Shown: positions 5,547 through 34,200 of the stretch, piece after piece
How the letters are laid out: each line of letters opens with the position of its first letter
How positions within the stretch are numbered: the first letter of the stretch is position 1
From: an uncultured bacterium
GTDB taxonomy: Bacteria; Patescibacteriota; Patescibacteriia; Magasanikbacterales; GWA2-37-8
Assembly (NCBI GenBank): GCA_937903605.1
Contig: CALCZC010000007.1
Coordinates: 37,982-101,981 of the forward strand
DNA: 64,000 nucleotides
Direction of reading: 5' to 3'
Translations under genes and position numbers: made by a program
The notes under the pieces: generated by a model
Told to the model about the DNA's origin: nothing
Databases searched by the model: none
What the model saw: the letters and a program-made list of their open reading frames with translations, nothing else

Positions 5547-5659
5547 ATAATACAAATACAAAACCTCGCCATTTCTGACGAGGTTTTCGTGTTATTTTTT
5601 AGTCTATCTGCTTACAGGCTTACTTGCTTACAAGCTTACCTGCTTACTTGCTTACCAGC

Positions 5660-6061
5660 TTATTTCAATTCAACTTTACCACCTGCTTCTTCAATTTTCT
5701 TTTTCATTTCTTGAGCTTCTTCTTTTTTCACACCTTCTTTAATAGCTTTTGGAGCTCCGTCAACCAAAGCTTTGGCTTCGGCAAGACCCAAACCAGTAAT
5801 TTCTTTTACCACTTTGATAACATTGATTTTGTTATCTCCTGCAGAAGTCAATTCAACATTGAATTCTGTTTTTTCTTCAGCAGCGGCAGCGCCGGCAGCT
5901 GGAGCGGCAGCCATCATCATAGCTGGAGCAGCGGCAGAAACACCAAATTTTTCTTCCAAAACTTTAACCAATTCGGCTAAGTCCAAAACGGACAATTTTT
6001 CAATTTGTTCCACCAAAGATTTAAACTTTTCCGGAACAACTACGTTTTTTTCTTCTGACAT
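5660..6061 (-). CDS. rplL: 50S ribosomal protein L7/L12
   Basis: Ala/Pro-rich hinge [25 protein letters not shown] and C-terminal domain [53 protein letters not shown]. Confidence 0.9.
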
Positions 6062-6899: not shown

Positions 6900-7775
6900 T
6901 CAGAGCACCCCTCTATAAAGAGAAGTCGCGGAAATAATACTGTCCGGCTCCATTCCCTTGATTATCGCGGGAAGCGGGGTTAAATCTGAGCCCACGCTAT
7001 CAGAGCCGATACTAACAAGCATGTGATTTTTTCGACAAAGACGGTACATGAAAATAATCGTTTCTTTGGGAACATCGGGATAATAAACTTCAACACCATC
7101 TACCCCGACTTTCAGAAATGCATTGAAAGTAGCCAGAAAATTTTCTTTAAAATTGCTTTGCCCGAAATTTTCATGGATACTCCGCCACGGATGTGCCCAA
7201 ATTATCAATGCTCCGGCCGCACGCATGGTTTTGAGTAATTGGTAGACACTACTTACCTTACGAGCACAATAAGCCGGTTTGCCGGGTTCCAAGTAACGAC
7301 GATAGAAATCATCGTTGCCAAAAATTTCTTCTTTCAACAATCTTTCCTGGTTTTCAGGATGGTTGCGAACATTTTCTACTACCAAGCGTCTGCCCAAAAA
7401 CTGTCGCGGGATGTTGTTCAGAGAATCAAAATTCACACGCCAGCCCAATTTTTGCAATCGTGCAACAACCTTCATCGCACGTCGATATTTGGCCTTGGCT
7501 TCTTTCTTGAAAAAACCCCTCACCTTCTGGATGTTTTTAAAATTATACACCAGAAAATGATAGATATTGTTTGCATACCTGGCATTAACCTCCACACCAC
7601 GTAAGCAGTTCAAATCATGCTTTTTACAAGCACCTTCAATTTCTGTGATTCGGTCAACACTTTCTTTGTCAATAATAGACAGGGTTTTGATTCCCGATTT
7701 TTTAACATTTTTCAGCAAATTTTCCAAACTATCTCCACCAATGTGCAGGTGGAGATCTTGTCTACACCTGTACAT
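6900..7775 (-). CDS. PHP (polymerase/histidinol-phosphatase) domain metal-dependent phosphoesterase
   Basis: N-terminal DLHLH metal-binding motif, later IIWAHPW and DGVEVYYPD His/Asp motifs typical of the PHP fold. Confidence 0.6.
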   Translation of the reverse strand: MYRCRQDLHLHIGGDSLENLLKNVKKSGIKTLSIIDKESVDRITEIEGACKKHDLNCLRGVEVNARYANNIYHFLVYNFKNIQKVRGFFKKEAKAKYRRAMKVVARLQKLGWRVNFDSLNNIPRQFLGRRLVVENVRNHPENQERLLKEEIFGNDDFYRRYLEPGKPAYCARKVSSVYQLLKTMRAAGALIIWAHPWRSIHENFGQSNFKENFLATFNAFLKVGVDGVEVYYPDVPKETIIFMYRLCRKNHMLVSIGSDSVGSDLTPLPAIIKGMEPDSIISATSLYRGVL

Positions 7776-10094: not shown

Positions 10095-10541
10095 TATCTC
10101 AAATCTCAAAACTCAAAAGTCAAAACTACAGCCTTAAGTGTCAAAACTATCTTTTGTTTTTCAAAGTTAAGAGACTTGATCCAAGCATGTTGGCTATTTG
10201 GTTTAGTTCTTCTGTTAATTCTTTGATTTTAGTATTATCCGCTTCTGTGGCGTCTCGTAGTAATCCAAACCAATATTTGCTTTCATTGGCTGATTTCAAA
10301 GCTATTTCATAAAACTTGATAAAGTCTTTTCTTGATGATGAAGATTTGGCTTCTACTATATTAGCTCCGATAGAAGTAGCTGACCGCAGTAGTTGATCAG
10401 CAATTATCCAGTATACTTTCTTTTCAGGTAATGTTTGAAGGAACTTAATAACTTTTATAGAGAAATAATAGCACCTTACTTTAATATCAGTTTTAAGGTT
10501 TTGAGTTGTAGATTTGAGATTTGACATTTGAGTTTTGAGAT
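10095..10541. mobile_element. MITE-like inverted-repeat element carrying the four-helix-bundle gene
   Basis: Left arm ATCTCAAATCTCAAAACTCAAAAGTCAAAACTACAG (10096-10131). Right arm 10497-10541 is its imperfect reverse complement (CTGTAGATTTGAGATTTGACATTTGAGTTTTGAGAT). The same IR family occurs without cargo at three other sites. Confidence 0.45.
10147..10527 (-). CDS. Four-helix-bundle protein (23S rRNA intervening-sequence protein family)
   Basis: Motifs YYFSIKVIKF...ADQLLRSATSIGANIVEAKSSSSRKDFIKFYEIALKSANESKYWFGLL are diagnostic of the TIGR02436-type family. The gene is flanked by about 40-bp inverted repeats. Confidence 0.8.
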   Translation of the reverse strand: MSNLKSTTQNLKTDIKVRCYYFSIKVIKFLQTLPEKKVYWIIADQLLRSATSIGANIVEAKSSSSRKDFIKFYEIALKSANESKYWFGLLRDATEADNTKIKELTEELNQIANMLGSSLLTLKNKR

Positions 10542-10591
10542 AAGAAAGTAGGACTTAGATATTAAGAAAAATTTATATTTTGAGGAATTAT

Positions 10592-11446: not shown

Positions 11447-11461
11447 ACAAAATAAAAAAAA

Positions 11462-11489
11462 TTCTTCGCCAAAAGCGAAGAATTTTTTT
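11462..11489 (+). terminator. Rho-independent terminator after rpmB
   Basis: TTCTTCGCCAAAAGCGAAGAA hairpin plus TTTTTTT. Confidence 0.6.
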
Positions 11490-11682
11490 AGTTCAACCAA
11501 GGGGTTAAAACATGTCCCTATATGTATAGGTGGTAAGTCACATGTTTAACCCACGGGTCAAACAGATATTGACGAACCTTCACATGTTTTTTGTAGAACA
11601 GTTTCACCCCGTTGGTGGAACGTAGGTATTATACCATAAAACTACCGAAGTCAAAAGTCAAAACTTTTGAGTTTTGGGTTTT

Positions 11683-12305: not shown

Positions 12306-12449
12306 AGAATAAAAATTTATTAATTATTATTTATTGTTTATTATTTATATTTTACAAATTTATTTAATTTTAATAAACAATAATCAATAAACAATAATTG
12401 TCTTTTGTTAAAAACTTAGCGCTATTTTATAACAAAAACATGCTTTTTG

Positions 12450-13798: not shown

Positions 13799-14041
13799 TT
13801 AACGAATAAATATTTTACCCAAGGTGGCCATGAGAAATCCTTCCCACATGCCGGTAATCAAAAGAAAACCGATAAAAATCAAAGCTATCCCGATAAGTTT
13901 ATAGGCCATTCGACTACCACCTTCTACATCTAATTTTTCTTCCGCCCAAGCGATACGTCCAAAATTTTCCATAAACCACTCTGTTTTCCAAATAAAAAAG
14001 AAACCAGCGGTTACAAATAAAATTCCAATAAAATATTTCAT
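13799..14041 (-). CDS. Small hypothetical membrane protein (start trimmed from the ORF-track call)
   Basis: The ORF-track N-terminus (MIFCEFYDEQNHEAV...) reads through a tRNA-3'-end-like repeat. The internal start MKYFIGILFVTAGFFFIW gives an ~80-aa two-TM protein. Confidence 0.35.
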   Translation of the reverse strand: MKYFIGILFVTAGFFFIWKTEWFMENFGRIAWAEEKLDVEGGSRMAYKLIGIALIFIGFLLITGMWEGFLMATLGKIFIR

Positions 14042-14288
14042 AAAAATTATTTTTGTACTCAGAAGGAGTAGTGCGCCCTGTACAAATGGTGGGCGGAAAG
14101 AGACTCGGCTTCGCCTCTCATCGCCTTCCGGCTTACTCGGGCTAGCCACCGCCTCGTGATTTTGCTCGTCATAAAACTCGCAAAATATCACTCCGGCGTT
14201 CTCGTCTCCACGAAATGCACATTAGTGCATTTCTATTGCAAACAAAGAATGATTTAAAATTTTAACATCTTGCAACCTAATACTCTGT

Positions 14289-14395
14289 ACAAATGGTGGG
14301 CGGAAAGAGACTCGAACTCTTAAGGCCTTGCGACCGCTACCACCTCAAGGTAGTGCGTCTACCAACCTGCCTGCCGGCAGGCAGGTTTCGCCACC
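14289..14395 (-). tRNA. Atypical tRNA-Leu(GAG)-like gene / possible pseudo-tRNA
   Basis: 3' two-thirds is a good tRNA: anticodon arm CTACC TTGAGGT GGTAG, long variable arm, T-arm AAGAG TTCGAGT CTCTT, acceptor 3' TCCGCCC-A-CCA. A 20-nt perfect palindrome CCTGCCTGCCGGCAGGCAGG sits in the D-loop. No 5' acceptor strand complementary to TCCGCCC could be found. Confidence 0.35.
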
Positions 14396-14422: not shown

Positions 14423-14508
14423 GGTGTCCAGAAGAGGACTCGAACCTCCATGGCCTTGCGGCCGCTACCACCTCAAGGTAGTGCGTCTACCAATTTCGCC
14501 ATCTGGAC
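14423..14508 (-). tRNA. tRNA-Leu (anticodon GAG)
   Basis: Acceptor GTCCAGA/TCTGGAC, D-arm GCG AAATTGGTAGA CGC, anticodon arm CTACC TTGAGGT GGTAG, long variable arm CGGCCGCAAGGCCATG, T-arm GGAGG TTCGAGT CCTCT, discriminator A + CC. Confidence 0.8.
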
Positions 14509-17910: not shown

Positions 17911-17956
17911 AAACGTGTATTATGTATTATGTAGAATGTAGTAAGTATTTTACGAA

Positions 17957-18331
17957 TTAATTATTTTTATAATTATATTTTTTCAAACCATTTATCAATT
18001 TACTCACAACTACTGTTTGATTGGCAAATAAACTAAATTTTTCCTGATTAATATATCCAATATCTTTAACTATTAATAATTGATTCTGCAATTCAGTTAA
18101 AGATCCTAAGGCCATGCTAAAAAAATTATTTTTATCCTTAGAGGTTGACCGACTGAAACCTTCAGCTATATTAGATGTAACAGAAACAACACAACGTCTC
18201 ATTTGACTTACTAAACCAAAGATTTCCTTATCCGGAAAATTTCCAGTTTCTTTATAAATTAATAATACTAATTTATGACCTTCTTTCCAAGCATTCAAAC
18301 CTGTAAACGATTTTATTTTCTTCCCCTCCAT
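17957..18331 (-). CDS. Four-helix-bundle protein (23S rRNA intervening-sequence protein family), second copy
   Basis: LVSQMRRCVVSVTSNIAEGFSRSTSKDKNNFFSMALGSLTELQNQLL matches the family core (IAEG...F...A.GS..E). Flanked by AT-rich inverted-repeat-like sequence. Confidence 0.8.
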   Translation of the reverse strand: MEGKKIKSFTGLNAWKEGHKLVLLIYKETGNFPDKEIFGLVSQMRRCVVSVTSNIAEGFSRSTSKDKNNFFSMALGSLTELQNQLLIVKDIGYINQEKFSLFANQTVVVSKLINGLKKYNYKNN

Positions 18332-18369
18332 ATTTAATACATAATACTTAATACATTATACATGCTACA

Positions 18370-19557: not shown

Positions 19558-19672
19558 ACTTTATAATTATTAAATAATAAGCAGGGTATAAAGTATCAAG
19601 TATGGAAACTTAATCTTAAATCAAAAGACCAAACCTTCCATACTTAATACTAAATACTATATACTAAATACC

Positions 19673-22324
19673 TCACAATTTTTTTAATTGTCCTTTAAGT
19701 TTATTTAATTTCTCTTGTGCTTCAACAAGTTTAGACTTCTCTTTCTCCACCACTACCACTGGAGCGTGAGCCATAAAATCCTGGTTGGCAAGTTTTGTCT
19801 GTAAAGAAACAAAATATTTTTCCGTTTCTTCAATTTCTTTTTCCAATCTGACTTTTTCTTTTTCCAAATCAACACTCCCGAGCACATCCAAAAATATTTC
19901 TACTCCTCCTTGCACAAAACCGACATAATTTTTTGGTTTTTTGGCTATCTTTTTAATAATCAATTCTTCCAATCTCCCCAGTCCTTTGATGATTTCCGAG
20001 TTCTTAGATAATAATTTCTTTTGCTGCCCGGCAGAAATAACGGCTTTGATTTTTTTGGCCGGTTCTATTTTATTATCCGCACGGGTTGCTCGAATTCCGG
20101 TGATAATATCCTTGATATTGCTAAAACTTTCAGTATTTTCTTTAATTTTCATTTTTGGCCAAGATGCAACCATCAACATTTCATTTTCTCCATAAACCTC
20201 CTGCCAAATAGTTTCTGTCACATATGGCATAAACGGATGCCATAATTTCAAGATAGTATTTAAGATATAATTCAAAATTTCAGATTTATCACCCTCAATT
20301 TTGGCGATTTCCAAATACCAATCCGCAAGTTCTCCCCAGGTAAAATCTCGCAATATTTCTCCACTAAAAGAAAAGTTATATTTTTCCAAATTATCCGTAA
20401 CTTGTGCAACTATTTTGTTCAATTCACTCAAAATCCATTTGTCCGCTATTGTTTTACCTTTTGGTTGTTTGATATCTTTTTGAGATTGCGGAATATTGAG
20501 CAACATAAATCGCGAAATATTCCAAAGCTTGTTGGTAAAATTACGAAAACCGGCAATTTTTTCCTCGGATAATTTCAAATCATTTCCCGGAGTATTTCCG
20601 AGCAAGGTAGACAAACGCGTAGCATCTGTGCCATATTTTTCAATCATGTCTAGCGGATCAATAGAGTTACCGAGTGATTTACTCATCTTACGCCCTTGTT
20701 CATCTCTGACCATACCGTGCAGATAAACTTTTTCAAATGGAATATCTCCCAAGGCGTAGGTGGTCATGAGAATCATGCGCGCTACCCAAAAGAAAATAAT
20801 GTCATAGCCTGTTTCCAAAACACTGGTCGGATGGAAATTTTTGAAATCAGCGGTTTTTTCCGGATAGCCTAAGGTGGAAAAAGTCCAAAGTCCGGAACTA
20901 AACCAGGTGTCCAGAGTGTCAGGATCTTGTGTCCAGCCTTCTTCTTTTGGTGCTTCAATGCCGACTTTGATTTTCTTTCCTTTATACCAAACAGGGATCT
21001 GGTGTCCATACCAAATCTGACGAGAAATACACCAATCGTTTAAATTTTTGATCCAATTGAAATATACTTTTTCAAAACGGTCAGGAATAATCTCTATCTG
21101 TTTTTTTTCTACAACTTTAAGCATCAATTCTTTGAGAGTTACTTCACTTCCAGGTTCTATGCCTTTTATTTTTTTGCCTTTAAATTTGAATTTTTTGTTT
21201 ACCGCCACAAACCATTGATCCGATGGCAATGGTTCAATAGGTGTTTCACAGCGATAACAAACGGATAAATTATTGGGAATATCTTTTTCTTCAATCATCA
21301 AACCCTCGGCAATCAAATTCTCAACCACTTTTTTTCTGGCTTCTTTTACGGTCAAACCCGCATATTCTTTGCCGGCCTGCGCGGTCATCTTGCCGTCTTC
21401 GTCAATAATTTTGATTATCGGCAAATCATTTTTTATTGCCATGTCGTAATCAACTTTGCTATGCGCCGGGGTAACACCAAGCGCGCCGGTACCAAAAGTC
21501 ATATCAACTGACTCATCGGCGATAATTTTTATTTTTAAATCACTGCCTTTGGCAAAACTTTTTACTTCAAAAGTTTGACCGATATATTGTTTATATCTAA
21601 CATCTCCGGGATTAACTGCGATAGCCGTGTCGCCTAGCTTGGTTTCCGGACGGGTTGTGGAAATGGCAATCGGAAAAACGGAAGAATATTTGAAAGTATA
21701 AAATTTGGCGCTTTGTTCTTTGTATTCCACTTCATCATCAGCCAAAGTACTATGACATCTCGGACACCAGTTCACAATTCTATACCCGCGATAAATCAAA
21801 TCATCGTCATACATTTTTTTAAATATGGTTTTTACCGCCAAGTTTCTTTTACTATCCAGTGTGAACGCTTCTCTGCTCCAATCTAAACTCGCGCCCATTT
21901 TTTTACTTTGGGTATTTATCGTATCATGAGATTTTTGCGCAAAATCATTTACTTCCGCCAAAAATTTTTCTCTGCCCAACTCTATTTTCGGATCTTTGAT
22001 TCCTTTTTCCATCAAGATTTTTTCTACTTTGGTTTGAGTAGCAATAGCCGCATGATCGGTTCCGGGCAACCAAAGAGTTTTTTCACCTTTCATCCGGTGA
22101 TAGCGCGTGATAGTGTCTTCTATCGCCAACATGGAAGCATGGCCCATGTGCAAAATACCGGTTACATTTGGCGGGGGCAACACCATAGAAAACGGTTTGG
22201 CATTTTTCTTACAAACGCCTTTTTGTACGCAAACATCAGGATTGAATAGACCACTATCTTCCCATTTTTTATAAATATTATCTTCAAACTGTTTTGGCTC
22301 GTAGGCCTTGTATAGTTCATGCAT
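19673..22324 (-). CDS. valS: Valine--tRNA ligase (start moved to the internal Met MHELYKAY; ORF-track start is 22411)
   Basis: PPPNVTGILHMGHA (HIGH), KMSKSLGN, editing domain, C-terminal coiled coil. 884 aa from the chosen start. Confidence 0.9.
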   Translation of the reverse strand: MHELYKAYEPKQFEDNIYKKWEDSGLFNPDVCVQKGVCKKNAKPFSMVLPPPNVTGILHMGHASMLAIEDTITRYHRMKGEKTLWLPGTDHAAIATQTKVEKILMEKGIKDPKIELGREKFLAEVNDFAQKSHDTINTQSKKMGASLDWSREAFTLDSKRNLAVKTIFKKMYDDDLIYRGYRIVNWCPRCHSTLADDEVEYKEQSAKFYTFKYSSVFPIAISTTRPETKLGDTAIAVNPGDVRYKQYIGQTFEVKSFAKGSDLKIKIIADESVDMTFGTGALGVTPAHSKVDYDMAIKNDLPIIKIIDEDGKMTAQAGKEYAGLTVKEARKKVVENLIAEGLMIEEKDIPNNLSVCYRCETPIEPLPSDQWFVAVNKKFKFKGKKIKGIEPGSEVTLKELMLKVVEKKQIEIIPDRFEKVYFNWIKNLNDWCISRQIWYGHQIPVWYKGKKIKVGIEAPKEEGWTQDPDTLDTWFSSGLWTFSTLGYPEKTADFKNFHPTSVLETGYDIIFFWVARMILMTTYALGDIPFEKVYLHGMVRDEQGRKMSKSLGNSIDPLDMIEKYGTDATRLSTLLGNTPGNDLKLSEEKIAGFRNFTNKLWNISRFMLLNIPQSQKDIKQPKGKTIADKWILSELNKIVAQVTDNLEKYNFSFSGEILRDFTWGELADWYLEIAKIEGDKSEILNYILNTILKLWHPFMPYVTETIWQEVYGENEMLMVASWPKMKIKENTESFSNIKDIITGIRATRADNKIEPAKKIKAVISAGQQKKLLSKNSEIIKGLGRLEELIIKKIAKKPKNYVGFVQGGVEIFLDVLGSVDLEKEKVRLEKEIEETEKYFVSLQTKLANQDFMAHAPVVVVEKEKSKLVEAQEKLNKLKGQLKKL

Positions 22325-22556
22325 AAAATACGAAAAATACACAAAAGATTTCCGAGTTAATATCGGAATCTCTTTTTTTGTAATTTTACAGGAAAAAAAA
22401 GAAATTTGCAAGGCAAATTTCGACTTCGGACTATAGACTACAGACTGTAATTAGACTTCAGTCAATCAGACTACGGACTACATATAGACTGGAGTCTGAA
22501 GACCGTAAATTATTGACGTTTTTTATTTAATATTAGCCAAAAAACAGCTTAGACAC

Positions 22557-22585
22557 TTGACAAAATAGTCAAAATATGCTATCAT
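22557..22585 (+). promoter_or_regulatory. Near-consensus sigma-70-type promoter (TTGACA-17-TATCAT)
   Basis: TTGACA at 22557-22562, 17-nt spacer, TATCAT at 22580-22585. Sits inside a repeat-dense 620-bp intergenic region, about 440 nt upstream of the next ORF. Confidence 0.5.
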
Positions 22586-23029
22586 ATATTGTTTAGTGCC
22601 TGGATTTTCGCTAAAATATGTTTAGACTTCGGACTACGGTCTACGGACTTCTCGGTAAGCAGAAGACTGAAGACAGTAGACTGAAGACCAATATCGCTCT
22701 TTACAATAAATGTGTGTGTTTAACCGGACTTCAGACTACAGGCTACAGACTACAAAATCTGGAGGCTGAAGACTGAAGACCGAAGACTAGTGTTAATTGG
22801 ATGAAGAGAGAAAAGTATGAAATAAGCTAGTAAGCAATAAGCTTGTAAGTCTACCTATCGGTAGACAGGCTGATAAGCTAAGAAGTTGACGAGATACAAA
22901 GCCCATGAAATAAATTTTAAAGAGGGCTGTAGTCAGAAGACTGTAGACTGAAGACCGAATTTACTTTTTTCTTTCCATCCAATTAACATATATTTTAAGC
23001 ATTACAAACAACAATACAAGGAGCGTGTC

Positions 23030-23656
23030 ATGAAGAACACCAAGAAAAACGCCTTCGCTTCCGTTTTCATCTCGTGTATCATTTTTATTACCTTTATCAC
23101 TATCACTTCATGTGGCGGTGAAGAACCGAATCTGCCTGACGACGATCAGGACAATGACGAAATCGCTGTTACCGACGATGAGCCGGTTGACAACGAACAG
23201 CCTGATGATGTAGTGGACGAAGAACCGGTTGACGATGATCAGCAGATTGATTGGTGTGGCCGTCTGGACCAGAACTATCGTCTCAGTGGTGAACCGATTT
23301 GGGAAGACCCGGAATTTCATTATGAATATCCGGTTACAATGACCAACAAAAAAGAGGGCTGTAATGTTATTTCGATGAACGAAGAACACGGCCCCTACAT
23401 TGAGTTCACTACTCAAGCTGAAAGTCTTCCGCTGGAAGGTCCTGACACCGCATATAATAACGGTTGTATCTGGTTCCTTTTCAAGCACGATCCGACTCCT
23501 TTTGGAAAAGATCAAGGACTCCTTTGGAGAAGGATTTGTCCAAAAGAACTTTTTGACAAATGGGAAGTTGAATGCCGAGAATTATCGGAAGATATTCCGG
23601 TAAAATACAAAGACGGAAATTGGTGCGCTGACTGGTGGATGGATGTCTACCGATAA
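23030..23656 (+). CDS. Acidic lipoprotein, paralog A (signal peptide + lipobox Cys, D/E-rich linker, Cys-containing C-terminal domain)
   Basis: MKNTKKNAFASVFISCIIFITFITITSCGGEEPNLPDDDQDNDEIAVTDDEPVDNEQPDDVVDEEPVDDD. Signal peptide with lipobox-like TSCGG. The N-terminal 70 aa are paralogous to the 25354 and 27619 genes. RBS AAGGAG. Confidence 0.6.
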   Translation: MKNTKKNAFASVFISCIIFITFITITSCGGEEPNLPDDDQDNDEIAVTDDEPVDNEQPDDVVDEEPVDDDQQIDWCGRLDQNYRLSGEPIWEDPEFHYEYPVTMTNKKEGCNVISMNEEHGPYIEFTTQAESLPLEGPDTAYNNGCIWFLFKHDPTPFGKDQGLLWRRICPKELFDKWEVECRELSEDIPVKYKDGNWCADWWMDVYR

Positions 23657-23671
23657 GCGTCCAAAAATTCA

Positions 23672-23708
23672 AAGAGCCAAGGCTTTCTGCCGAGGCTCTT
23701 TTTTTATT
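23672..23708 (+). terminator. Rho-independent terminator after lipoprotein A
   Basis: AGAGCCAAGGC...GAGGCTCT hairpin + TTTTTTT. Confidence 0.55.
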
Positions 23709-23761
23709 TATCCTGTGAAATTCTAAATATTTTAATATTGTAATATTTTAATATTTTATTT

Positions 23762-23931
23762 CTATTCAACTATCACACTCCCATTATATAGCACCCAGGC
23801 TTTATTTTGAGTTTGAACACAATCGTTTTGATTTACGGAAATTTCAGCATAACACCCGTTCCCCGTATAATTAGGATTCATACCTGTATCACACCTTCCA
23901 CTACACCACCCCCAATTATCCAACACCTGAA
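23762..23931 (-). pseudogene. Orphan start-less copy of the Cys-rich C-terminal module (QVLDNWGWCSGRC...NGSVIVE) found at the C-terminus of the giant protein
   Basis: 217 bp (23715-23931) are identical except for one synonymous base to 25980-26196. Reading frame gives QVLDNWGWCSGRCDTGMNPNYTGNGCYAEISVNQNDCVQTQNKAWVLYNGSVIVE* but is preceded by an in-frame TAA directly after the ATPase stop. No start or signal peptide. Confidence 0.5.
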
Positions 23932-23935
23932 AATT

Positions 23936-25223: not shown

Positions 25224-25370
25224 TCTCTTGACAATCCCTCTGTTTTATGTCAATATACGTTGTTTAGTCTCAATATCTGCGCTAAAATAAAAAATATAAA
25301 TAGCTCTTTAATAATTTTTTAATGTGTTATAAACTTTTTGCAAGGAGAGTGTCATGAAAAAGAACGCTTT
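25224..25370 (+). repeat. About 147-bp promoter/leader repeat (copy 1), identical to 27489-27635
   Basis: TCTCTTGACAATCCCTCTGTTTTATGTCAATATACGTTG...TTTTTGCAAGGAGAGTGTCATGAAAAAGAAC is shared verbatim upstream of lipoprotein genes B and C and includes a TTGACA box. Confidence 0.7.
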
Positions 25371-25946: not shown

Positions 25947-26026
25947 ATCCAATTTTTCTTTTCTTAATATCTTCACCCCGTGAAATTCTAAATATTTTAA
26001 TATTGTAATATTTTAATATTTTATTT

Positions 26027-26263
26027 CTATTCTACTATCACACTCCCATTATATAGCACCCAGGCTTTATTTTGAGTTTGAACACAATCGTTTTGATTTA
26101 CGGAAATTTCAGCATAACACCCGTTCCCCGTATAATTAGGATTCATACCTGTATCACACCTTCCACTACACCACCCCCAATTATCCAACACCTGAACTCG
26201 CGGGAATCTGGCGTTAATAGGACCTGAATAATAAATACTTAAATAAAATATAATATTCTTCAC
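26027..26263 (-). CDS. Orphan Cys-rich C-terminal module ORF (78 aa, no signal peptide), paralogous to the giant-protein C-terminus
   Basis: MKNIIFYLSIYYSGPINARFPRVQVLDNWGWCSGRCDTGMNPNYTGNGCYAEISVNQNDCVQTQNKAWVLYNGSVIVE. The 3' 217 bp is identical to 23715-23931. Lies directly downstream of the ATPase gene. Confidence 0.45.
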   Translation of the reverse strand: MKNIIFYLSIYYSGPINARFPRVQVLDNWGWCSGRCDTGMNPNYTGNGCYAEISVNQNDCVQTQNKAWVLYNGSVIVE

Positions 26264-26271
26264 TACAAACT

Positions 26272-27396
26272 TTAAACCAAAAACTCTAAATAATTTTCTC
26301 TATTGATCACTTTGTATTCACTCTCTGAATATGTTTTTTTCCAGTCTTTTGGTGCGTCTTTTTTAAAATTTTGCGACCATTTTATTTCAAAGGCTCGAAG
26401 CTGTCCGTCTTTATCCTCAATCAAATCTATTTCTTGTCCGGCATATGTTCGCCAAAAATAAAGATTACCATAACTTTCTTTATATTCATCTTTTTTTATT
26501 TTTTCCATTACTACAAAATTTTCAAATAATCTTCCGACATCATCTCTATCATTTAAATCATTAAATTGTGAAATTACTGCATTTCTGATACCGTTGTCTA
26601 AAAAATAATATTTAGCTTTAGTCGTAATTTCTTGGCGTAAATTGCGAGAAAAACCACCCATCCTTTTTATTACAAAACCTTTTTCCAAAATATCCAGATA
26701 TTTAGCCACCGTTTTTACATCCATTTTTATCTGCGTTGCCAATTCACTCAAAGAAACCTCATTACCAACTTGAAAAGCCAATAACTTTAACAAATTTAAA
26801 AGCTGAAAAGAGCCACGAATTTTTTCAATATTCAAAACATCTTTTAATAAATAAGAAGATACCAATTCATTGAGTATCGCAATCTTTTCTTTTTTTGTTT
26901 TTGCTAAAAATACTTCTGGATAAGAGCCAAAAATCAAAAACTCTGTAAGCTTTTCTTGTAACTCTTGTTTATTATAAACATTCAATAACTCAATTTGAGA
27001 AAAAGGATATAAAATCAAAGTTTTCTTTCTTCCGGTAAGTGGTTCCCCTATTTTTTGTTCTAAATCAAAAGAAGACGACCCTGTAACCACCACATAAATC
27101 CCTGGAATTTGGTCAACTAAAATTTTCAACGCCATACCAATGTTTGGAATATTTTGTGCTTCGTCTATGGTAATCAATTCATACCCCTCTGCATAGGCTA
27201 AAATTTTGGAAAAATCTTGAGAAGCCAGTATTTCTTGGGTTTTGATATTATCCCCAGAATCAATTTTATATTTTAATTCAGTTTTAGCCAAAAAATCGTT
27301 TAAAAGAGTTGTTTTCCCTACTCTTCTAGGCCCATAAACAACTAAAACTTTGTTTTTTTGTTTAATATTAGCCAAATTATAATATCTTGGTAACAT
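26272..27396 (-). CDS. AAA+ ATPase of the AAA_14/DUF4143 family (divergent paralog of 23936-25141)
   Basis: Walker A VVYGPRRVGKTT, Walker B LITIDEAQ, C-terminal DUF4143-like region (YFLDNGIRN, WRTYAGQEIDLIE). Confidence 0.75.
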   Translation of the reverse strand: MLPRYYNLANIKQKNKVLVVYGPRRVGKTTLLNDFLAKTELKYKIDSGDNIKTQEILASQDFSKILAYAEGYELITIDEAQNIPNIGMALKILVDQIPGIYVVVTGSSSFDLEQKIGEPLTGRKKTLILYPFSQIELLNVYNKQELQEKLTEFLIFGSYPEVFLAKTKKEKIAILNELVSSYLLKDVLNIEKIRGSFQLLNLLKLLAFQVGNEVSLSELATQIKMDVKTVAKYLDILEKGFVIKRMGGFSRNLRQEITTKAKYYFLDNGIRNAVISQFNDLNDRDDVGRLFENFVVMEKIKKDEYKESYGNLYFWRTYAGQEIDLIEDKDGQLRAFEIKWSQNFKKDAPKDWKKTYSESEYKVINRENYLEFLV

Positions 27397-28256: not shown

Positions 28257-31200
28257 CTATTCTACTATTACATTTCCATTATATTCTATCCAGGGATACA
28301 TTGGAGAAGCAGGATTACCATTTTCAGGTACACAATCGCTTGCCGCACCATCTGCATAACACCCATAATTCCTTGTTCCATAAGGATTATTCGTAGTGCA
28401 TCTCCCACTACACCACCCCCAATTATCCAAAACCTGGACTCGCGGAGTACTAGTACTTGGAGTACTGGTATAAGTAAAGTGAAATTCGTATGGCGTGTTT
28501 TTGCAACCAGTACCATCTGTACCGCTCTTATTTCCAAAACTTCCCGGATCATTGTCTCCTTCTACAAAAGTAACACAGCGAGATGTTTGAACTGTCATCT
28601 TACCTCCAGCTTTCTTTTTTGCATCATAAAATACACAGTCTTCAGCTTTGTTACAAGGAATTTGATATTGATAGTTTGCTGGTTCATATTCACACCATCC
28701 AACGTGAGTACAAAGCGGTTTGCGGTTAGCAATACTGCGAGCTTCCAAAACTATTGCGGGGTCTTCGGTTTTTGTTTGATACATTATCCGACGTACCGGC
28801 ATTTGTGCCGGGTCAGCCCAAGCATAAAATTCCAGAGCCACATCGGAATTAGGACTTACGGTACAATTACCACCACTTAACAATTCATCACTACAATTTG
28901 ACTTATTAACCACTACTGTATTTAAAGCAAATGTTTTACAATCAGGTTTTCCACCTGCGGCTTTATAAGCCTCGCAATCCGCAGATCCGGGAGATAGTTG
29001 TATAGGCGCAGCAATCACTGGTGGTTTGATATTAACGTCACAACTCGAAGCCCTTTCAGGACTGGCACAATCTATTGGGGATTTAAAAGTTAATTTGGTT
29101 GGCTCCTTGAATTCATTTACCGAGCTGGTTGGGAAGACCCTGACAAACATATTTTTTAACATTTCCCCATATTTAAGGTCTTCTAAACTATAAATTCCAA
29201 ATCTAGGAAAACTAATTTCTGTTTCTATGTCATTTCTATTTTCATAAGAAATCAAGGGACTACGTACACGTTCACGTTCATCCAAATAAAAACCAAATTC
29301 ATTTGTTTTTCCCCCATAATATGTAGTCAAGAAAGGATTTGTCAAATCGGGAAAGGTAAAGTAGCCTGTCATATCCAACTTCGGTTCCTTGATGCCCTGA
29401 AAATAAGATCTATTTAAAGTATACGAATTGGTAGCAAAACGAGTGCTAGCCGTTTCATCTTTTGGAATATTGTAAACCGTATATGTTTGATCAGGATATA
29501 GCGTATCACCCATATTGGTTTTTCCTTTGATTAATCTCCAAGTAACTGGTTTGGCGTCAATGGCAATTTCAGCTGCTTGGGCACTTGCCCCTGGAGGACG
29601 ACTATTTTTTGAAACTTTGGCAAACTCTGTACAAGAACCATCAGAAAAATGTATGACAAAGAAAAAATTAATACCTGCTGTATGACCAGCATTATCATGT
29701 AAATCCAGTTGCGCACCGAGTAATTGATCATCGCTCCCCCAAATAATCCTTGCACCAAAACCATCAAAATCGGTTTCATATGAATTAGCTTCAAATTTTG
29801 TAGGACTTGTCGGCAAACCAAAAGTATCTTCTGTTTCGCTATAAAAAAACATTTTTTTCTTGTCCTTTGATTCAAAATAATCATACTCCTCACCTTCTCC
29901 TTTATTAGCCATAACCTTAACTTCCCAAATAGTTTTTCCATCCTTCTTGTAAGTACTTTTTCTTATTAATTGTTCTCTGTTATTACCATCTTTTAGCGGT
30001 ACTCCGAGTTTAGATTGCTTAATACAAACATCTTCCAAATCGTTTTCGCAATCATAACTTTTTTTATCGGTCGAATTTTTTTCTTTGGGCGAACAATCTA
30101 CTCCCTCTGTCAAATAACAACCGGTAATCTCTTTATTTTCAAAAGTAATAATGTTGTTGTTGAAAAATTGTTCTGTTGCTATTGGATTATCTGTACCATT
30201 CGCGACTATCCAGCCGGGAGACTCTCCTATACCAAAAAAATTAACCACGCCCTTTTTCTTCAATTCTTGGTAAGTTTTCCCCAAAACTAAATCTATTTTG
30301 ACCACATCTGTTTTCTTGATTTTTCCATTATTGTAAAAAGACGGTTCTGTAGCAGGAGTAAAAACACCAGTGAGTCTATCTTGAAATTCGCTGACTTTAT
30401 TATTATCAAGACTTAATGGACAATATACTCGAGTGTTATCTTTTTTTAGACTTTCAATAACTCCTTGTCTTAGAACAGGAAAAACCTTATTATCCATATC
30501 ATTGAAACATTTCAGTATATGAGCATTCGGTGGTAAATTATAAACCATGGCCGAAGAAACGTAGTTATGGTATGTAATCGTCTGAGAAGCTTGAACCATC
30601 CAATCAACTACCACACCTAGAGCTGCCACCCAACCGAATATAGAACTTACCGAAGCTGCAACAGCTGCCGCAATAGAGGCTGCAACCGCTCCGCCTATGG
30701 CTCCCGCTATACCTGTAATAAGGGCTGTCGTTCCAGCTACCATGCCAAAAGTTAAGGGGAACGAGCCACCATCAACCCAAGCAACACCTACGGCCGCATA
30801 TTTTTCCTCGTTGTTTATTGCTAATGCAGCATCTGTCATTTCTTGTGTTGAAGTAGAAAAACAAACATATTCTTCATCAATCTCATCTACGAGATATACT
30901 TCGCCAATCTTTCCTCCTGGTGTAGTTGTACAATACCCAGCATCACTCATTTGTTGAGTACATTTCAATGTATCCACTTGCATGTATGGCTTTGTACATC
31001 CTCCCCTAGTTAAATAAGCTGTTTCACACACACATCCTTTTTCCCATACCACCTGTTTGCTTGTAAAAAACTTATCACTTTTTACCATATTTATAGAAAA
31101 AGCATTGGCACCAGCTCCACCCAGATCAACGCAATTATCATTATCACCACCTAGATCACAATATTTGAAAACATCCACAGTGGTTGTCCTGCTTTCAACT

Positions 31201-34200
31201 TCTACATTTTTGGCATTATCGATCTCTCCTGCGCTAACAGGGTTACCTGCGTTAAAATAAAATTCTAAATTTGGCAAGGGTTTCAATTTTAACGGCTGAT
31301 TGGCAATACACATATATCTATCCTTGGTATCATTTCCTTCATAAGCGGCTTTTTTATCAATTATCCAAATATCCGGCGCACCAGGAGGAACCTCCACCGG
31401 CCACCAAGTCAAACAAGGATTTTGTTCTGGTTCCCCATAAAGCTTATACTTGGGATTTTTTTCTACACAATAACCTTGCCAACCTCTAACCTCGTTTACA
31501 CTTTTTTTATTAGCGCAAATTCCTCCTCCACATTGTTCGCTATTAACACACGGTGTTCCTTCGGTTTCAAGCGAACCGCCAATACAAATACTTTGGGATT
31601 CCCTTTCTGTCCCTAAAGGAAAATAAACAAACTGGTTATTATATTCTACTTTTTTATAACTACAATCACAGGAATCCTCTTTATTTACAGTGGTACAAAT
31701 TTCTAAAGCCTTATTTTTAACAAGATATGCGTAAGCACTCCTAGAAACAGGTGTCACTCCTTCGATTGTTTCAATAATACCCCATGGATCAAATGGACTG
31801 TTTTCTTCCGGATAACCACGACAAGAAAGTTCACCGGAAGTCCTGAGTTTGCCACGATTTCTTATCATATTATTTTCTATTCCACCGGTAATAGGATATA
31901 TACACTCTCCACCTAAACACAAACCTTCTTTATTTAAACCACAAGACTTTGTCATGGTATTATCAAACTTGTTACATTCCTGAACATTTCCTTGACCAGG
32001 GACAAAAATATTTCCACTATTTTCCCAATGGACCAAGCGCGGTTCAAAATAAACACCTTCTTCTCCACTACTTTGCACCAAATTACCCACATTATATGGT
32101 TCAACATCGTTCATACGAATATACCTTACTCCCAAAGACGGAATCTGATAAGAATTGTGTAAAGTATAACCACTTAATTCCGGATCTGCCCAATTAACAC
32201 CTCTGCTTCTATAATTACTGGTGGTTATTTTTGAATTTCTCCAAGCCCAGCTATCCAAAGTAACATTTTGATCGCAATTTCCTTCTGAAAACATACCTGG
32301 GAGAGATTTACTACACAAACCAAAGCTATAGCATCTGGCTTTATCATCTTCTACTTGATAATTGTTACAATACATCCAAAGATTGCATTCGCGATCACGG
32401 GCAACTTTTACCAAAATATTGGCGTCTCTAGTCTCTGTTTCTACCGGTGGCACCGGAGCTCCTTTGACCGCGTTGGAAGCCTCATAAGTAGCTTCTGTGT
32501 TATATTTTTTATTTGGATTATTTACTTGATCAAGTAATACACAACCATAATTCACACTCGCGCCATTGGGACATTCTTCGTTTATTTTTTCACTCAATTT
32601 CCCATTATCAATGAGATAGTAAGAATTGGCAGCCGGAATACAAGTATCCCCTTGTTGAGAGCTGCAATCTTTATCGTATTCACATTTCATCCCTGATATG
32701 CTGCATTTTTTAACCGAAACATCGTTATGATCGTCAAATCTAGAACAACCATCTTGAGAAGAAGGGCACTCGCCTACATAGCCTCTGTAGCTTGTCGTAT
32801 TACCAAACGGTGGCAAAGAAATGCCAAGACCGGTAGCACAAACCTGTGTTTCATCATCTTTTAACACCCATTTACCGATTTTGGAATTACCAACGGTTTC
32901 CTCTTTATAAACACAAACTTTTTTACCAATGTTTTCCGGATCTTTAAAATAATAATTTCCTGAACCGGAACGCCAAACATCACACCCTTCAGCTTCTTTG
33001 GTACAGAGAATTCCACGATTATTACTACCTGACGATTCATAGCGAGTAGGATCGTTGATAATATAGGCATCTTCAAAAACGTATGTATTGGTGACATTTT
33101 TATATCCTTTACCCATCAAAGTACAGCCAACATTGTCTTTGTTACAAAAATTATTTACATTATCATTTTTTCTAATTGTCAAATAAATAGGCGAACTTGT
33201 TGGAGAAGTCTGTTTATAAACCAAAACCGTTGAAGTGGTAAACGCAGCACCGGTTAAAGAGCTTTGTCCGATACCGGAAGCATTTACATAACAACCGCCT
33301 TCGCCATCGGGCACAATACAATCATAATTTATACCGTTGATTTGAATAGTTGGTTTATTGCCAACCTCCGGTTTTTGTAAACCTAGATTAAATATCTGCC
33401 AAGTGGTGCTGGCGATATTACTACCTTTATTGTAAGTATCAACCAAACGAGTACAACCAATAGCCCCATCTCTGCAAAGATAACTGAAATTGTGTAAATA
33501 AATATTATCTTTACTAAGCGGAGATTTGTAAGCACGACAACCCAAGGCAGAACCTGGGAGGTTATCTTTTTGATCAAGATCGCATGATGCAGGAACCGAA
33601 AGTTTATCTTTTACCAGATAAACTGTGTCGTCTATACTTTTTAACGAAACATTATCCAAGAAGATAACTCCTCCAGCTCTATTATAATCTAAAAATATTA
33701 TATGAGCCCCTTCACCAGATGGCACACTCCCGCTAATAGCGGGATTACTTATTACGAATTCATAACGACGCCAATTGTCTGTCAAATTAACAGTTCCAAC
33801 ATTGTAGGTAAAGCCATTACCCAAAGTGATATCCCATCTTTTTGTACCTTTGGCTAAGAAAGAAAGTGAATAAACTCCGGTATTTTTTATATCCGTATTA
33901 TAATGTCTAAAACCTCGAGTAGCAGTACCGCTATTTGCCGCCACTGTAACTTTCAAAGATTTACCAAAATTGGATAACGTTTCTTCTGACAAAGAGATGG
34001 TAGTACCATTGTCAGCACTTTCGCTTGTCTTCCACCAGCCCCTTTTTGTATTGGAAACCATATTAGTCAAACCGATACCAGAGTCAAAACTATATGTAGG
34101 GAAAATATCTCTTATATTATTACCAGTGTTACCTTGATATTTGCGACATGATACTTTGTCTTGAGAACAAATTTTACTTTCAGCCCCACCAGCAACCACA

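Follow-up and report, generated by a model that had tools for sequence, protein, structure and literature searches.

A strain-variable cluster of small palindromic elements, probably akin to intervening sequences or REPs, around a conserved lipoprotein promoter of a patescibacterium

What are the AGACT-based words that crowd the spacer between valS and the first of three lipoprotein genes in the 64,000-nucleotide stretch of patescibacterial DNA studied here (the window)? A preliminary description had taken them, over 22412-23029, for a 620-bp repeat-dense leader, and had offered as explanations either a long structured 5' leader or small RNA (sRNA), or else an array of binding sites for a regulator of the locus. 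Our analysis leads elsewhere: the region is probably a strain-variable cluster of small palindromic elements devoid of open reading frames (ORFs), resembling the intervening sequences (IVSs) of 23S rRNA or the repetitive extragenic palindromes (REPs), which have amassed around a conserved promoter and which, in the 5' untranslated region (5'UTR), are probably substrates of RNase III. Because valS, on the - strand, starts with its ATG at 22324, the true spacer is the 705 bp from 22325 to 23029, on the far side of which lipoprotein gene 1 begins on the + strand at 23030. The three lipoprotein genes are + strand paralogues with starts at 23030, 25354 and 27619. They lie in a window of about 36% G+C, the GC skew of which keeps its sign throughout, and which otherwise holds aminoacyl-tRNA synthetase (aaRS) genes, lower glycolysis genes, a 2976-aa ORF, AAA_14/DUF4143 ATPases and two PF05635 genes.

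Word counts bear out the density of the AGACT words, which is far above chance. For AGACT itself, where 0.31 occurrences would be expected per 618 nt, the + strand has 14 and the - strand two; GACTGAAGAC, with at most one mismatch, has nine matches against 2.1 expected, all inside 22454-22955, and GACTACRGACT at the same tolerance has ten against 0.48, all inside 22422-22751. The recurrence noted earlier thus holds, but the scattering of the words over both strands does not: they are about two dozen in-phase + strand heptamers, units of 7-nt tandem arrays as delimited by Tandem Repeats Finder (TRF), and fall into two classes, GACTWCR (starts at 22422/29/36, 22469/76, 22625/32/39 and 22727/34/41/48) and YGWAGAC (starts at 22661/68/75/82, 22767/74/81 and 22928/35/42/49). 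Either class is the imperfect reverse complement of the other, so that a left array and the right array after it close into a hairpin with one to two mismatches per heptamer. The locus as a whole comprises three complete hairpins (A, B and C), a half hairpin (D) and a 27-bp inverted repeat (I2):

22401-22421, no strand assigned: 9-bp palindrome GAAATTTGC-AAG-GCAAATTTC marking the left boundary of the variable DNA, terminator-like on the - strand
22422-22505, + strand: hairpin A, GACTTCG GACTATA GACTACA GACTGTA, an inner segment, then GACTACG GACTACA ... TGAAGAC; upstream of the promoter
22625-22689, + strand: hairpin B, (GACTTCG GACTACG GTCTACG GACTTCT), loop, (AGAAGAC TGAAGAC AGTAGAC TGAAGAC)
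22727-22787, + strand: hairpin C, (GACTTCA GACTACA GGCTACA GACTACA), loop AAAATC, (TGGAGGC TGAAGAC TGAAGAC CGAAGAC)
22791-22817, + strand: left arm of I2, TGTTAATTGGATGAAGAGAGAAAAGTA
22821-22849, + strand: 8-nt-period array within I2, ATAAGCTA GTAAGCAA TAAGCTT GTAAG (TRF)
22849-22866, + strand: perfect 7-bp hairpin GTCTACC-TATC-GGTAGAC within I2, read from the letters and present in the predicted fold
22928-22957, + strand: module D, a lone right-arm array TGTAGTC AGAAGAC TGTAGAC TGAAGAC CG (TRF array 22927-59)
22962-22988, + strand: right arm of I2, TACTTTTTTCTTTCCATCCAATTAACA

Hairpins A, B and C all fold better than shuffled sequences, with z-scores of -3.2 to -6.6 that are similar on both strands. 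B (TRF period-7 arrays 22625-49 and 22662-88; -25.2 kcal/mol, z = -4.3) and C (TRF arrays 22727-54 and 22766-88; -24.7 kcal/mol, z = -6.6) are clean hairpins of four plus four units with arms of 28 nt each, whereas A is less regular (-25.4 kcal/mol, z = -3.2 on the + strand; -26.7 kcal/mol, z = -3.5 on the - strand). Over 30 nt, module D and the left arm of C are 83% complementary and could form an alternative long-range pairing, I1 (22725-54 with 22928-57). I2 is a non-periodic inverted repeat of 27 nt, with arms that are 89% complementary across the intervening 144 nt; it encloses the 8-nt-period GTAAGC array, the perfect 7-bp hairpin and D, and supplies the dominant stem in the predicted fold of the leader. 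The word families of this interior recur elsewhere in the window. An array of GTAAGC words follows rplL in the sense orientation (5608-5662), where it takes the form of an 8-nt-period array GCTTACNN (GTAAGCNN in the sense of rplL) directly after the stop codon, and a 9-nt array, (GACTTTATA)x4, stands at 2293-2331 just upstream of a gene at 2338. The I2 interior uses the families of both arrays, as 8-mers in the window and as 9-mers in the related locus L028.

How much of this DNA can be transcribed with the lipoprotein gene depends on the promoter and on the parts of the leader that the paralogous genes share:

22383-22411, - strand: valS promoter-like site TTGCAA-17-TAAAAT, 9 of 12 consensus positions, 59 nt upstream of the valS ATG, kept in L026-L028
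22519-22545, - strand: relic of an AAA_14/DUF4143 ATPase gene, from its 5' end (..LANIK..), agreeing in 22 of 23 nt with the gene start at 27354-27376
22557-22585, + strand: sigma-70-type promoter TTGACA-17-(TGc)TATCAT, with the -35 at 22557-22562, the -10 at 22580-22585 and a TGn extension; 11 of 12 consensus positions
22589-22618, + strand: conserved 5' block of the leader, TTGTTTAGT...CGCTAAAATA, aligned with the leaders of 25354 and 27619
22690-22726, + strand: ancestral leader block AATATCGCTCTTTACAATAAATGTGTGTGTTTAACC between B and C, matching AGCTCTTTA(C)AAT..GTGTGTT(T)ATAAAC in the short leaders of the paralogues and of L026
22989-23029, + strand: conserved 3' block of the leader, aligned with the 3' ends of the paralogous leaders, with the Shine-Dalgarno sequence AAGGAG at 23018-23023
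23030-23656, + strand: lipoprotein gene 1, an ORF of 208 aa with a signal peptide ending in ..ITSC and an acidic linker

The product of lipoprotein gene 1 matched no Pfam or NCBIfam family; its N-terminus is common to the products of the genes at 25354 and 27619, and a terminator-like hairpin followed by a T-run (about 23671-23706) comes after the gene. The -35, the TGn-extended -10 and the first 30 or so nt of the transcript are conserved upstream of both paralogues and in the sister strains, L028 (where the -10 reads TACCAT) and L026 having kept the promoter, so the promoter at 22557 is probably real. It had already been pointed out as such, and its consensus quality and spacing, with the ATG at 23030 lying 445 nt past the -10, are upheld. 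The extent claimed for the leader is not: transcription is predicted to start near 22592, and 22412-22556, including hairpin A, lie upstream of the promoter, so that only 22592-23029 can be leader. The remnant at 22519-22545 stands where cassettes 2 and 3 have the ATPase gene ahead of their promoters. Hairpin A takes the place of that gene and lies outside the transcription unit.

The roughly 438 nt of leader have a strong predicted fold (-137.6 kcal/mol, z = -6.8), in the minimum-free-energy form of which 22989-23029 is largely unpaired and the Shine-Dalgarno sequence free. A long structured 5' leader was thus rightly suspected insofar as the promoter and the fold go, but a dedicated riboregulator finds no backing in the Rfam search or in the comparison of paralogues and strains, which differ. 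The Rfam covariance models gave no match at the gathering score and nothing credible even at E <= 10, where the best hit scored 21 bits against thresholds of 36-195; neither did a scan reveal a terminator-like site on the + strand inside the leader. The paralogous leaders at 25354 and 27619 measure only about 100 nt and contain neither hairpin B nor the other modules, although the last 45 or so nt before the ATG are conserved across the paralogues. As the promoter and both ends of the leader are common to these short leaders, the hairpins amount to about 360 nt of extra DNA, and the leader of gene 1 is the ancestral leader with hairpin B and the C/I2/D block added to it. A leader peptide was also considered, in the form of a 52-codon ORF (22618-22776), and rejected: the ORF spans B as well as the left arm of C, B is replaced in L028, and the ORF is not provided with a Shine-Dalgarno sequence.

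Over 22300-23100, no difference separates four independent assemblies of the same strain, and this makes a chimeric assembly unlikely here. A ValRS-based metagenome scan furnished three relatives of the same species, L026, L027 and L028, with valS at 96-97% nucleotide identity. On the contig of a strain with 96% identity in ValRS, the PF05635 protein bears the NCBI label Candidatus Magasanikbacteria, which places the organism among the Patescibacteria. In L026 and L027 the homology ends at 22413-22416 and gives way to a different spacer of about 260 nt, followed by a gene like that at 25354 with a short, hairpin-free leader. The break falls inside the palindrome 22401-22421, the right half of which therefore came with the variable DNA. 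In L028 the flanks are about 100% identical and the promoter is kept, as are hairpin C and both I2 arms at 100% identity, yet between them whole modules differ. Hairpin A retains its left arm, with a strongly diverged interior and right arm between identical flanks; hairpin B is replaced by an unrelated palindrome, GTCATTGCGA...TCGCGATGAC, with a second GTCATTGCGA element added at about 22994; the I2 interior carries a 9-nt array, (CATAAAGTC)n, instead of the 8-nt array, and lacks the 7-bp hairpin; and D is shorter by one heptamer, the only single-unit difference seen against L028. Absence of the repeats from the orthologous region of relatives, which the preliminary description had named as evidence that would count against it, is thus what L026 and L027 display in full and L028 in part. 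Compared in this way, the region is a hot spot of insertion and replacement, rather than a conserved regulatory RNA or operator array.

Several other small palindromes were seen in spacers of the same kind. One of the form GTCATTGCGA...GAAGCAATCC...TGGGATCGCCAC...TCGCGATGAC is present three times in the 10 kb of L028 (1-89, 2508-2600 and 2841-2944) and nowhere in the window; the window has an element GTCATTCCTGC...GCAGAGATGAC at 1383-1429, and an intergenic spacer of L026 an element GTCATACTGAA...TTCAGGATGAC.

The modules of this spacer belong to a class that pervades the genome. The window contains 12 period-7 arrays against 0.0 in shuffles and four period-8 arrays against 0, other periods being represented by about zero to one array (0-1 for periods 5, 6 and 9-12). 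At a looser threshold, period-7 arrays number 25 per 100 kb in the window and 50 per 100 kb in other DNA of its species; sister species have 0 in 25 kb, and other loci of the candidate phyla radiation (CPR), over 612 kb, have 1.1 per 100 kb. The density of the arrays follows lineage rather than base composition. Nearly all of those in the window are in spacers or at gene ends, often just past stop codons, including beside housekeeping genes such as pgk and between valS and tyrS. Most are inverted pairs that form hairpins, each with a heptamer of its own (16007/16101, 12315/12372, 37204/37255, 46503/46597, 55542/55584 and 19600/19640). Array families are multi-copy, with conserved arms and differing loops, as exemplified by 26 identical nt at 28-53 and 12372-12397; the AGACT family, for its part, is confined within the 64 kb to the present spacer. 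Heptamers are the most over-represented long simple-sequence repeats (SSRs) in bacteria, with a sporadic distribution and no known function (PMC4692102, PMC4679880). Given the differences between strains and this membership in a genome-wide class of hairpins, the AGACT hairpins are not a locus-specific regulator site.

A search for the hairpin pattern GACTWCRGNCTWC, gap, GAAGACNGWAGAC, for which about two chance matches are expected in 596 Gb, yielded 21 loci (L005-L025), all in metagenome-assembled genomes (MAGs) and spread over many phyla, while searches of phages, plasmids and viral contigs gave no match. At least 13 of the 21 lie in frame and on the sense strand within housekeeping genes, their hosts comprising RF1, PolA (just before the QVHDE motif), UvrD, MnmA, TrmD, TsaD, LeuRS and prepilins. 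The RF1 hairpin is at the same site in two CPR genomes; hairpins of the AGACT type are found, for example, at 469-522 of L012, 3177-3239 of L014, 3520-3577 of L024 and 177-232 of L017. Such in-frame hairpins translate as ..TTDYRLQTT..KTEDRRPKT... Because they also occur inside housekeeping ORFs of unrelated MAGs, hairpins of the AGACT type are not signals specific to lipoprotein genes. Two further readings of this distribution were tried and dropped. To regard the sharing across phyla as one mobile family is unsafe, since the genomes concerned are heptamer-rich and carry many different heptamers, so that a fixed AGACT pattern samples some of them; and the sense-strand bias does not require an RNA function, as the reverse orientation gives TAG/TGA stops and hydrophobic peptides, and filtering at the protein level suffices to explain it.

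A different connection emerged from the two PF05635 genes of the window. The S23p/IVP protein encoded by such genes is a pentameric four-helix-bundle protein and a homologue of Avd. Both genes are enclosed by inverted heptamer arrays, and a third locus nearby has a hairpin of the same build without a gene:

17911-18368, - strand: element with a PF05635 gene (17957-18331) between inverted arrays TGTATTA / TAATACA; Pfam 1.3e-33, TIGR02436
10090-10545, - strand: element with a second PF05635-type gene (about 10150-10535) between inverted arrays CTCAAAA / TTTTGAG; TIGR02436 9.8e-28
19586-19672, - strand: ORF-less heptamer hairpin between valS and tyrS, the ends of which align with the full L028 element at 7255-7715

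The start codon of the second gene lies inside its array. A hidden Markov model (HMM) built from 121 homologues matched the window only at 17960-18355 and 10150-10554. The loci compared were these two elements, L014 (4680-5140), L028 (7250-7730) and L106-L117. Inverted heptamer arrays likewise flank the PF05635 genes of L027/L028/L109 and of L014, and five further homologues, labelled Moran-, Kuenen-, Wildermuth- and Taylorbacteria with one unlabelled; array-flanked homologues are also found on finished plasmids of Nostoc PCC 7120, N. punctiforme and Riemerella. Variants include an array on the 3' side only in Calothrix, direct arrays in Pseudanabaena and period-8 arms in Picosynechococcus. 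At one fixed threshold, a period-7 array abuts the gene end in 11 of 12 PF05635 genes. S23p/IVP genes adjoin short-period arrays in nearly all cases examined, which span CPR bacteria, cyanobacteria and Bacteroidota, the arrays being mostly of heptamers, usually inverted and usually on both sides, with a heptamer that differs by clade; we found no statement of such a rule of heptamer arms at S23p/IVP genes in the searchable literature. In nine PF05635 elements the arms comprise 2.1-5.6 heptamers, mostly 3.6-5.6, and the AGACT modules have 3-4 per arm.

These elements are subject to both loss of the ORF and exchange. The hairpin 19586-19672 agrees with the ends of the L028 element over 43 of 53 nt and over 14 of 14 plus 13 of 18 nt; the aligned ends take in the first codons, ATGGA(A/G)GG, but the ORF is gone. 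By this alignment the hairpin is a deletion derivative of a PF05635 element, and L111 (2001-2375) has a full PF05635 element at the same valS-tyrS position. Between tyrS and argS, the window and a sister strain have PF05635 elements with 64% protein identity and different arms, in between flanking genes that are 96-99% identical, implying replacement or mobility. With their 28-nt arms, hairpins B and C attain the terminal stem of at least about 25 bp that characterizes S23p/IVP elements, and their duplex energies resemble those of the ORF-less hairpins and fall among the weaker values seen for PF05635 arms.

Taken together, we posit that the AGACT hairpins would be ORF-less members or derivatives of the IVS-like class, with in-place growth by slippage and template switching as an alternative origin, and that they may persist because they do little harm in spacers. 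Transcription from 22557 would render B, C and I2 as imperfect double-stranded RNA stems of 25-30 bp in a 5'UTR of about 438 nt. By analogy with the 23S IVSs and with the 5'UTR of Haemophilus hmw1A, RNase III probably cuts these stems, which would leave a short leader like those of the paralogues, with the Shine-Dalgarno sequence free. In that case the insertions would be tolerated, with no more effect than to tune the level of lipoprotein-1 mRNA between strains, instead of acting as a dedicated sensor switch.

A number of observations weigh against this account. No PF05635 ORF lies between AGACT arms in 22325-23029, and a search of about 0.9 Mb of retrieved DNA brought up no PF05635 gene with GACTWCR arms, so the link of the AGACT family to IVP is one of architecture and co-occurrence only. 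The stems, with their one to two mismatches per heptamer, may be poor substrates of RNase III. The strand asymmetry of G.U versus A.C pairs, with 24 against 17 G.U pairs over nine IVP elements and none for B or C, spoke neither for nor against selection on the RNA. The perfect conservation of C and of the I2 arms between the window and L028 might reflect constraint rather than recent common ancestry. A Pfam scan of ORFs of at least 150 aa, covering nearly all of them, detected no gene for RNase III, a transposase or a recombinase in the window. Finally, we infer the start of transcription, the cleavage by RNase III and the effect on expression alike.

Among the rival explanations, two rank ahead of the rest. 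In one, gain or loss of array units or replacement of modules would tune the lipoprotein through 5'UTR structure and RNase III, the variability itself being useful. Such a contingency switch would suit a surface lipoprotein in a three-copy cassette locus, the modules of which do vary between strains with near-identical flanks, down to the one-heptamer change in D, and it has a tested precedent in an adhesin with a 5'UTR heptamer hairpin cut by RNase III (PMC12721329). We nevertheless hold it to be unlikely: with only 3-4 imperfect units each, where hmw needs at least 11 perfect ones, the arrays are poorly slippage-prone; the four independent assemblies show no variation; hairpin A is outside the transcript of the gene; and the occurrence of similar hairpins between housekeeping genes (valS-tyrS, pgk) speaks against a special tie to surface genes. 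In the other, the arrays would be purely local SSRs made by slippage, with the second arm copied by template switching at quasi-palindromes, and would have neither a function nor any relation to IVP. That heptamers are the commonest class of long bacterial SSRs and are attributed to polymerase slippage (PMC4692102, PMC4679880), that the AGACT family is restricted to a single spacer of the 64 kb, that no IVP parent turned up, and that the left junction makes a palindrome with the flank (22401-22421) as template switching would, are all in keeping with it. It is made improbable, to a like degree, by the dispersal of other array families of the window as near-identical copies, their association with PF05635 genes in nearly all cases examined, the one ORF-less hairpin that is demonstrably a deletion derivative, and an array density that tracks lineage instead of base composition.

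The explanations that assign the repeats a dedicated regulatory role fare considerably worse. A cis-regulatory RNA, be it a riboswitch, thermometer or attenuator, could draw on the choice of the C left arm between the C right arm and D, in competition with I2; these pairings are mutually exclusive, I1 and I2 interlock in the manner of a pseudoknot, the predicted fold of the leader is strong, and a U-rich tract follows D. Against this we have the negative Rfam search, the lack of a + strand terminator-like site inside the leader, a Shine-Dalgarno sequence that is not sequestered, paralogues that do without the modules, and the swapping of B and the I2 interior in L028 along with the absence of the whole region from L026 and L027, which together render such a switch very unlikely. 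We consider equally far-fetched an operator array for a regulator of the cassette locus, or an sRNA gene within 22412-22556. A single word family is indeed dense around the promoter, and a terminator-like hairpin is present on the - strand (22421-22401). But phasing at 7 bp puts successive sites on different faces of the helix, the promoters of the other two cassettes have no such words, and the same architecture, made of unrelated heptamers, fills many spacers of this genome; both this spacing and this recurrence tell against the array of regulator sites proposed at the outset. The sRNA suggested there is not sustained either, for want of an Rfam match and of a place for hairpin A in the transcription unit, and given that the hairpin part is lost or replaced in near-identical strains; the consensus scan found no - strand promoter-like site in the spacer besides 22411-22383, and so none for hairpin A, and half of the presumed terminator is missing in L026 and L027. 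An sRNA running on the - strand over hairpin A to end at 22421-22401 was discarded on the latter two grounds. We also discarded an invertible segment bounded by I2, there being no recombinase in the window and the promoter lying outside I2 (the orientation is the same in the window, L001-L004 and L028), and a replication origin or iterons, there being no DnaA boxes and no change of sign in the GC skew.

The preferred reading, a cluster of tolerated IVS-like or REP-like palindromes, gains in definition when set beside known systems. The 23S IVSs with an S23p/IVP ORF (Coxiella, Leptospira, Salmonella) have a comparable terminal stem of about 28 bp or more, and in Coxiella a 28-bp terminal stem is cut by RNase III and two to three strain-variable GACAGAT heptamers precede the S23p ORF (PMC4990558); a stem of tandem heptamers with a strain-variable number of units (GACAGAT x2-3) is therefore shared. 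Both also sit in transcribed non-coding RNA, here by prediction, and full PF05635 elements with heptamer arms lie a few kb away here, between aaRS genes. The AGACT hairpins differ in having no ORF, and no ORF-bearing parent with these arms was found; in their location in an mRNA leader and a spacer upstream of a promoter rather than in helix 25 or 45, the window containing no rRNA; and in being stacked several at one site. For them, cleavage by RNase III is proposed by analogy. In Haemophilus influenzae, a heptamer hairpin in the hmw1A 5'UTR is cut by RNase III and sets the expression of the adhesin (PMC12721329). As in hmw1A/hmw2A, hairpin-forming heptamers lie here between a promoter, in our case a predicted one, and the start codon of a surface protein. 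There, however, a single long perfect array of at least 11 units pairs with a G-rich arm and is highly prone to slippage, whereas here short imperfect arrays of 3-4 units make up both arms of three hairpins and the variation is mostly by replacement of whole modules.

REPs, along with the bacterial interspersed mosaic elements (BIMEs) and REPINs composed of them, are similarly short, imperfect, extragenic palindromes, often just 3' of genes, clustered and strain-variable, and are thought to affect mRNA stability. The present arms, by contrast, are 7-nt periodic, with many families per genome in place of one consensus, and the partner gene encodes a four-helix-bundle protein and not a Y1 transposase; no RAYT, the Y1 transposase of REPs, was among the Pfam-scanned ORFs of at least 150 aa in these 64 kb. 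The palindromic elements of Rickettsia are small and tolerated both in spacers and in frame in housekeeping genes, and are 100-150 bp long and not heptamer-periodic. To our knowledge they are confined to Rickettsia. The in-frame AGACT hairpins in RF1, PolA, UvrD and LeuRS of other MAGs recall them, whereas all AGACT copies in this window are non-coding. Closest in unit length are the short tandemly repeated repetitive (STRR) sequences and other long heptanucleotide SSRs (Calothrix, Nostoc, Xanthomonas GGGAATC, Beggiatoaceae TAACTGA), which are also intergenic, over-represented, sporadic and sometimes in inverted pairs; here, the inverted hairpin arrangement is the rule and the arrays are short, and there is a physical link to PF05635 that the searchable papers do not mention. 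The AGACT feature may thus be said to combine known kinds, namely IVS-like or REP-like palindromes, heptamer repeats and an hmw-like 5'UTR hairpin.

Some features of the window stand apart from the spacer. The giant gene for the 2976-aa protein (28257-37187) has two orphan copies of its last 60 or so codons (..VQVLDNWGWCSGRC...YNGSVIVE*) at 23740-23935 and 26005-26215 on the - strand, downstream of the gene itself. A short-period array comes after each copy, and the repeated cassette that houses it also contains an AAA_14/DUF4143 ATPase gene and a convergent lipoprotein gene; the copies look like cassettes for C-terminal replacement, as in polymorphic toxins or antigenic variation. Two tandem tRNA-Leu(GAG) genes at 14294-14376 and 14423-14508 are both called by ARAGORN, and only one by Rfam at the gathering score; a third, partial tRNA 3' end (..TGTACAAATGGTGGGCGGAAAGAGACTCG..) about 250 nt away, at about 14030-14075, may be a remnant of integration or duplication. 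After rpmB and its terminator comes a structured-looking spacer of about 150 nt within 11460-11640, which has no Rfam match at the gathering score and could be an unannotated sRNA; beyond it are a heptamer hairpin (11648-11680) and a second terminator.

For this locus, the above removes the operator-array and riboswitch readings. As the repeats are strain-variable insertions, regulation of the lipoprotein cassettes would be best predicted from the conserved promoter and the short ancestral leader. The association of S23p with heptamer arms is a more valuable lead than the locus itself, and it invites a bolder proposal, which we advance tentatively and as doubtful: heptamer hairpins, the AGACT modules included, could be the cis-acting ends of an unrecognised element built around S23p/IVP. 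S23p would bind some 4-5 heptamers per arm, and the elements would insert, displace each other and be reduced, within transcribed spacers, to 'mini-IVS' hairpins that have lost the ORF, resulting here in an RNase III-dependent, strain-variable control of the lipoprotein. If true, this would explain both the role of S23p and the excess of heptamers, such as the STRR sequences, in bacteria; and if general, the dominance of heptamers among long SSRs, the nature of the STRR repeats and the role of S23p would become a single testable question.

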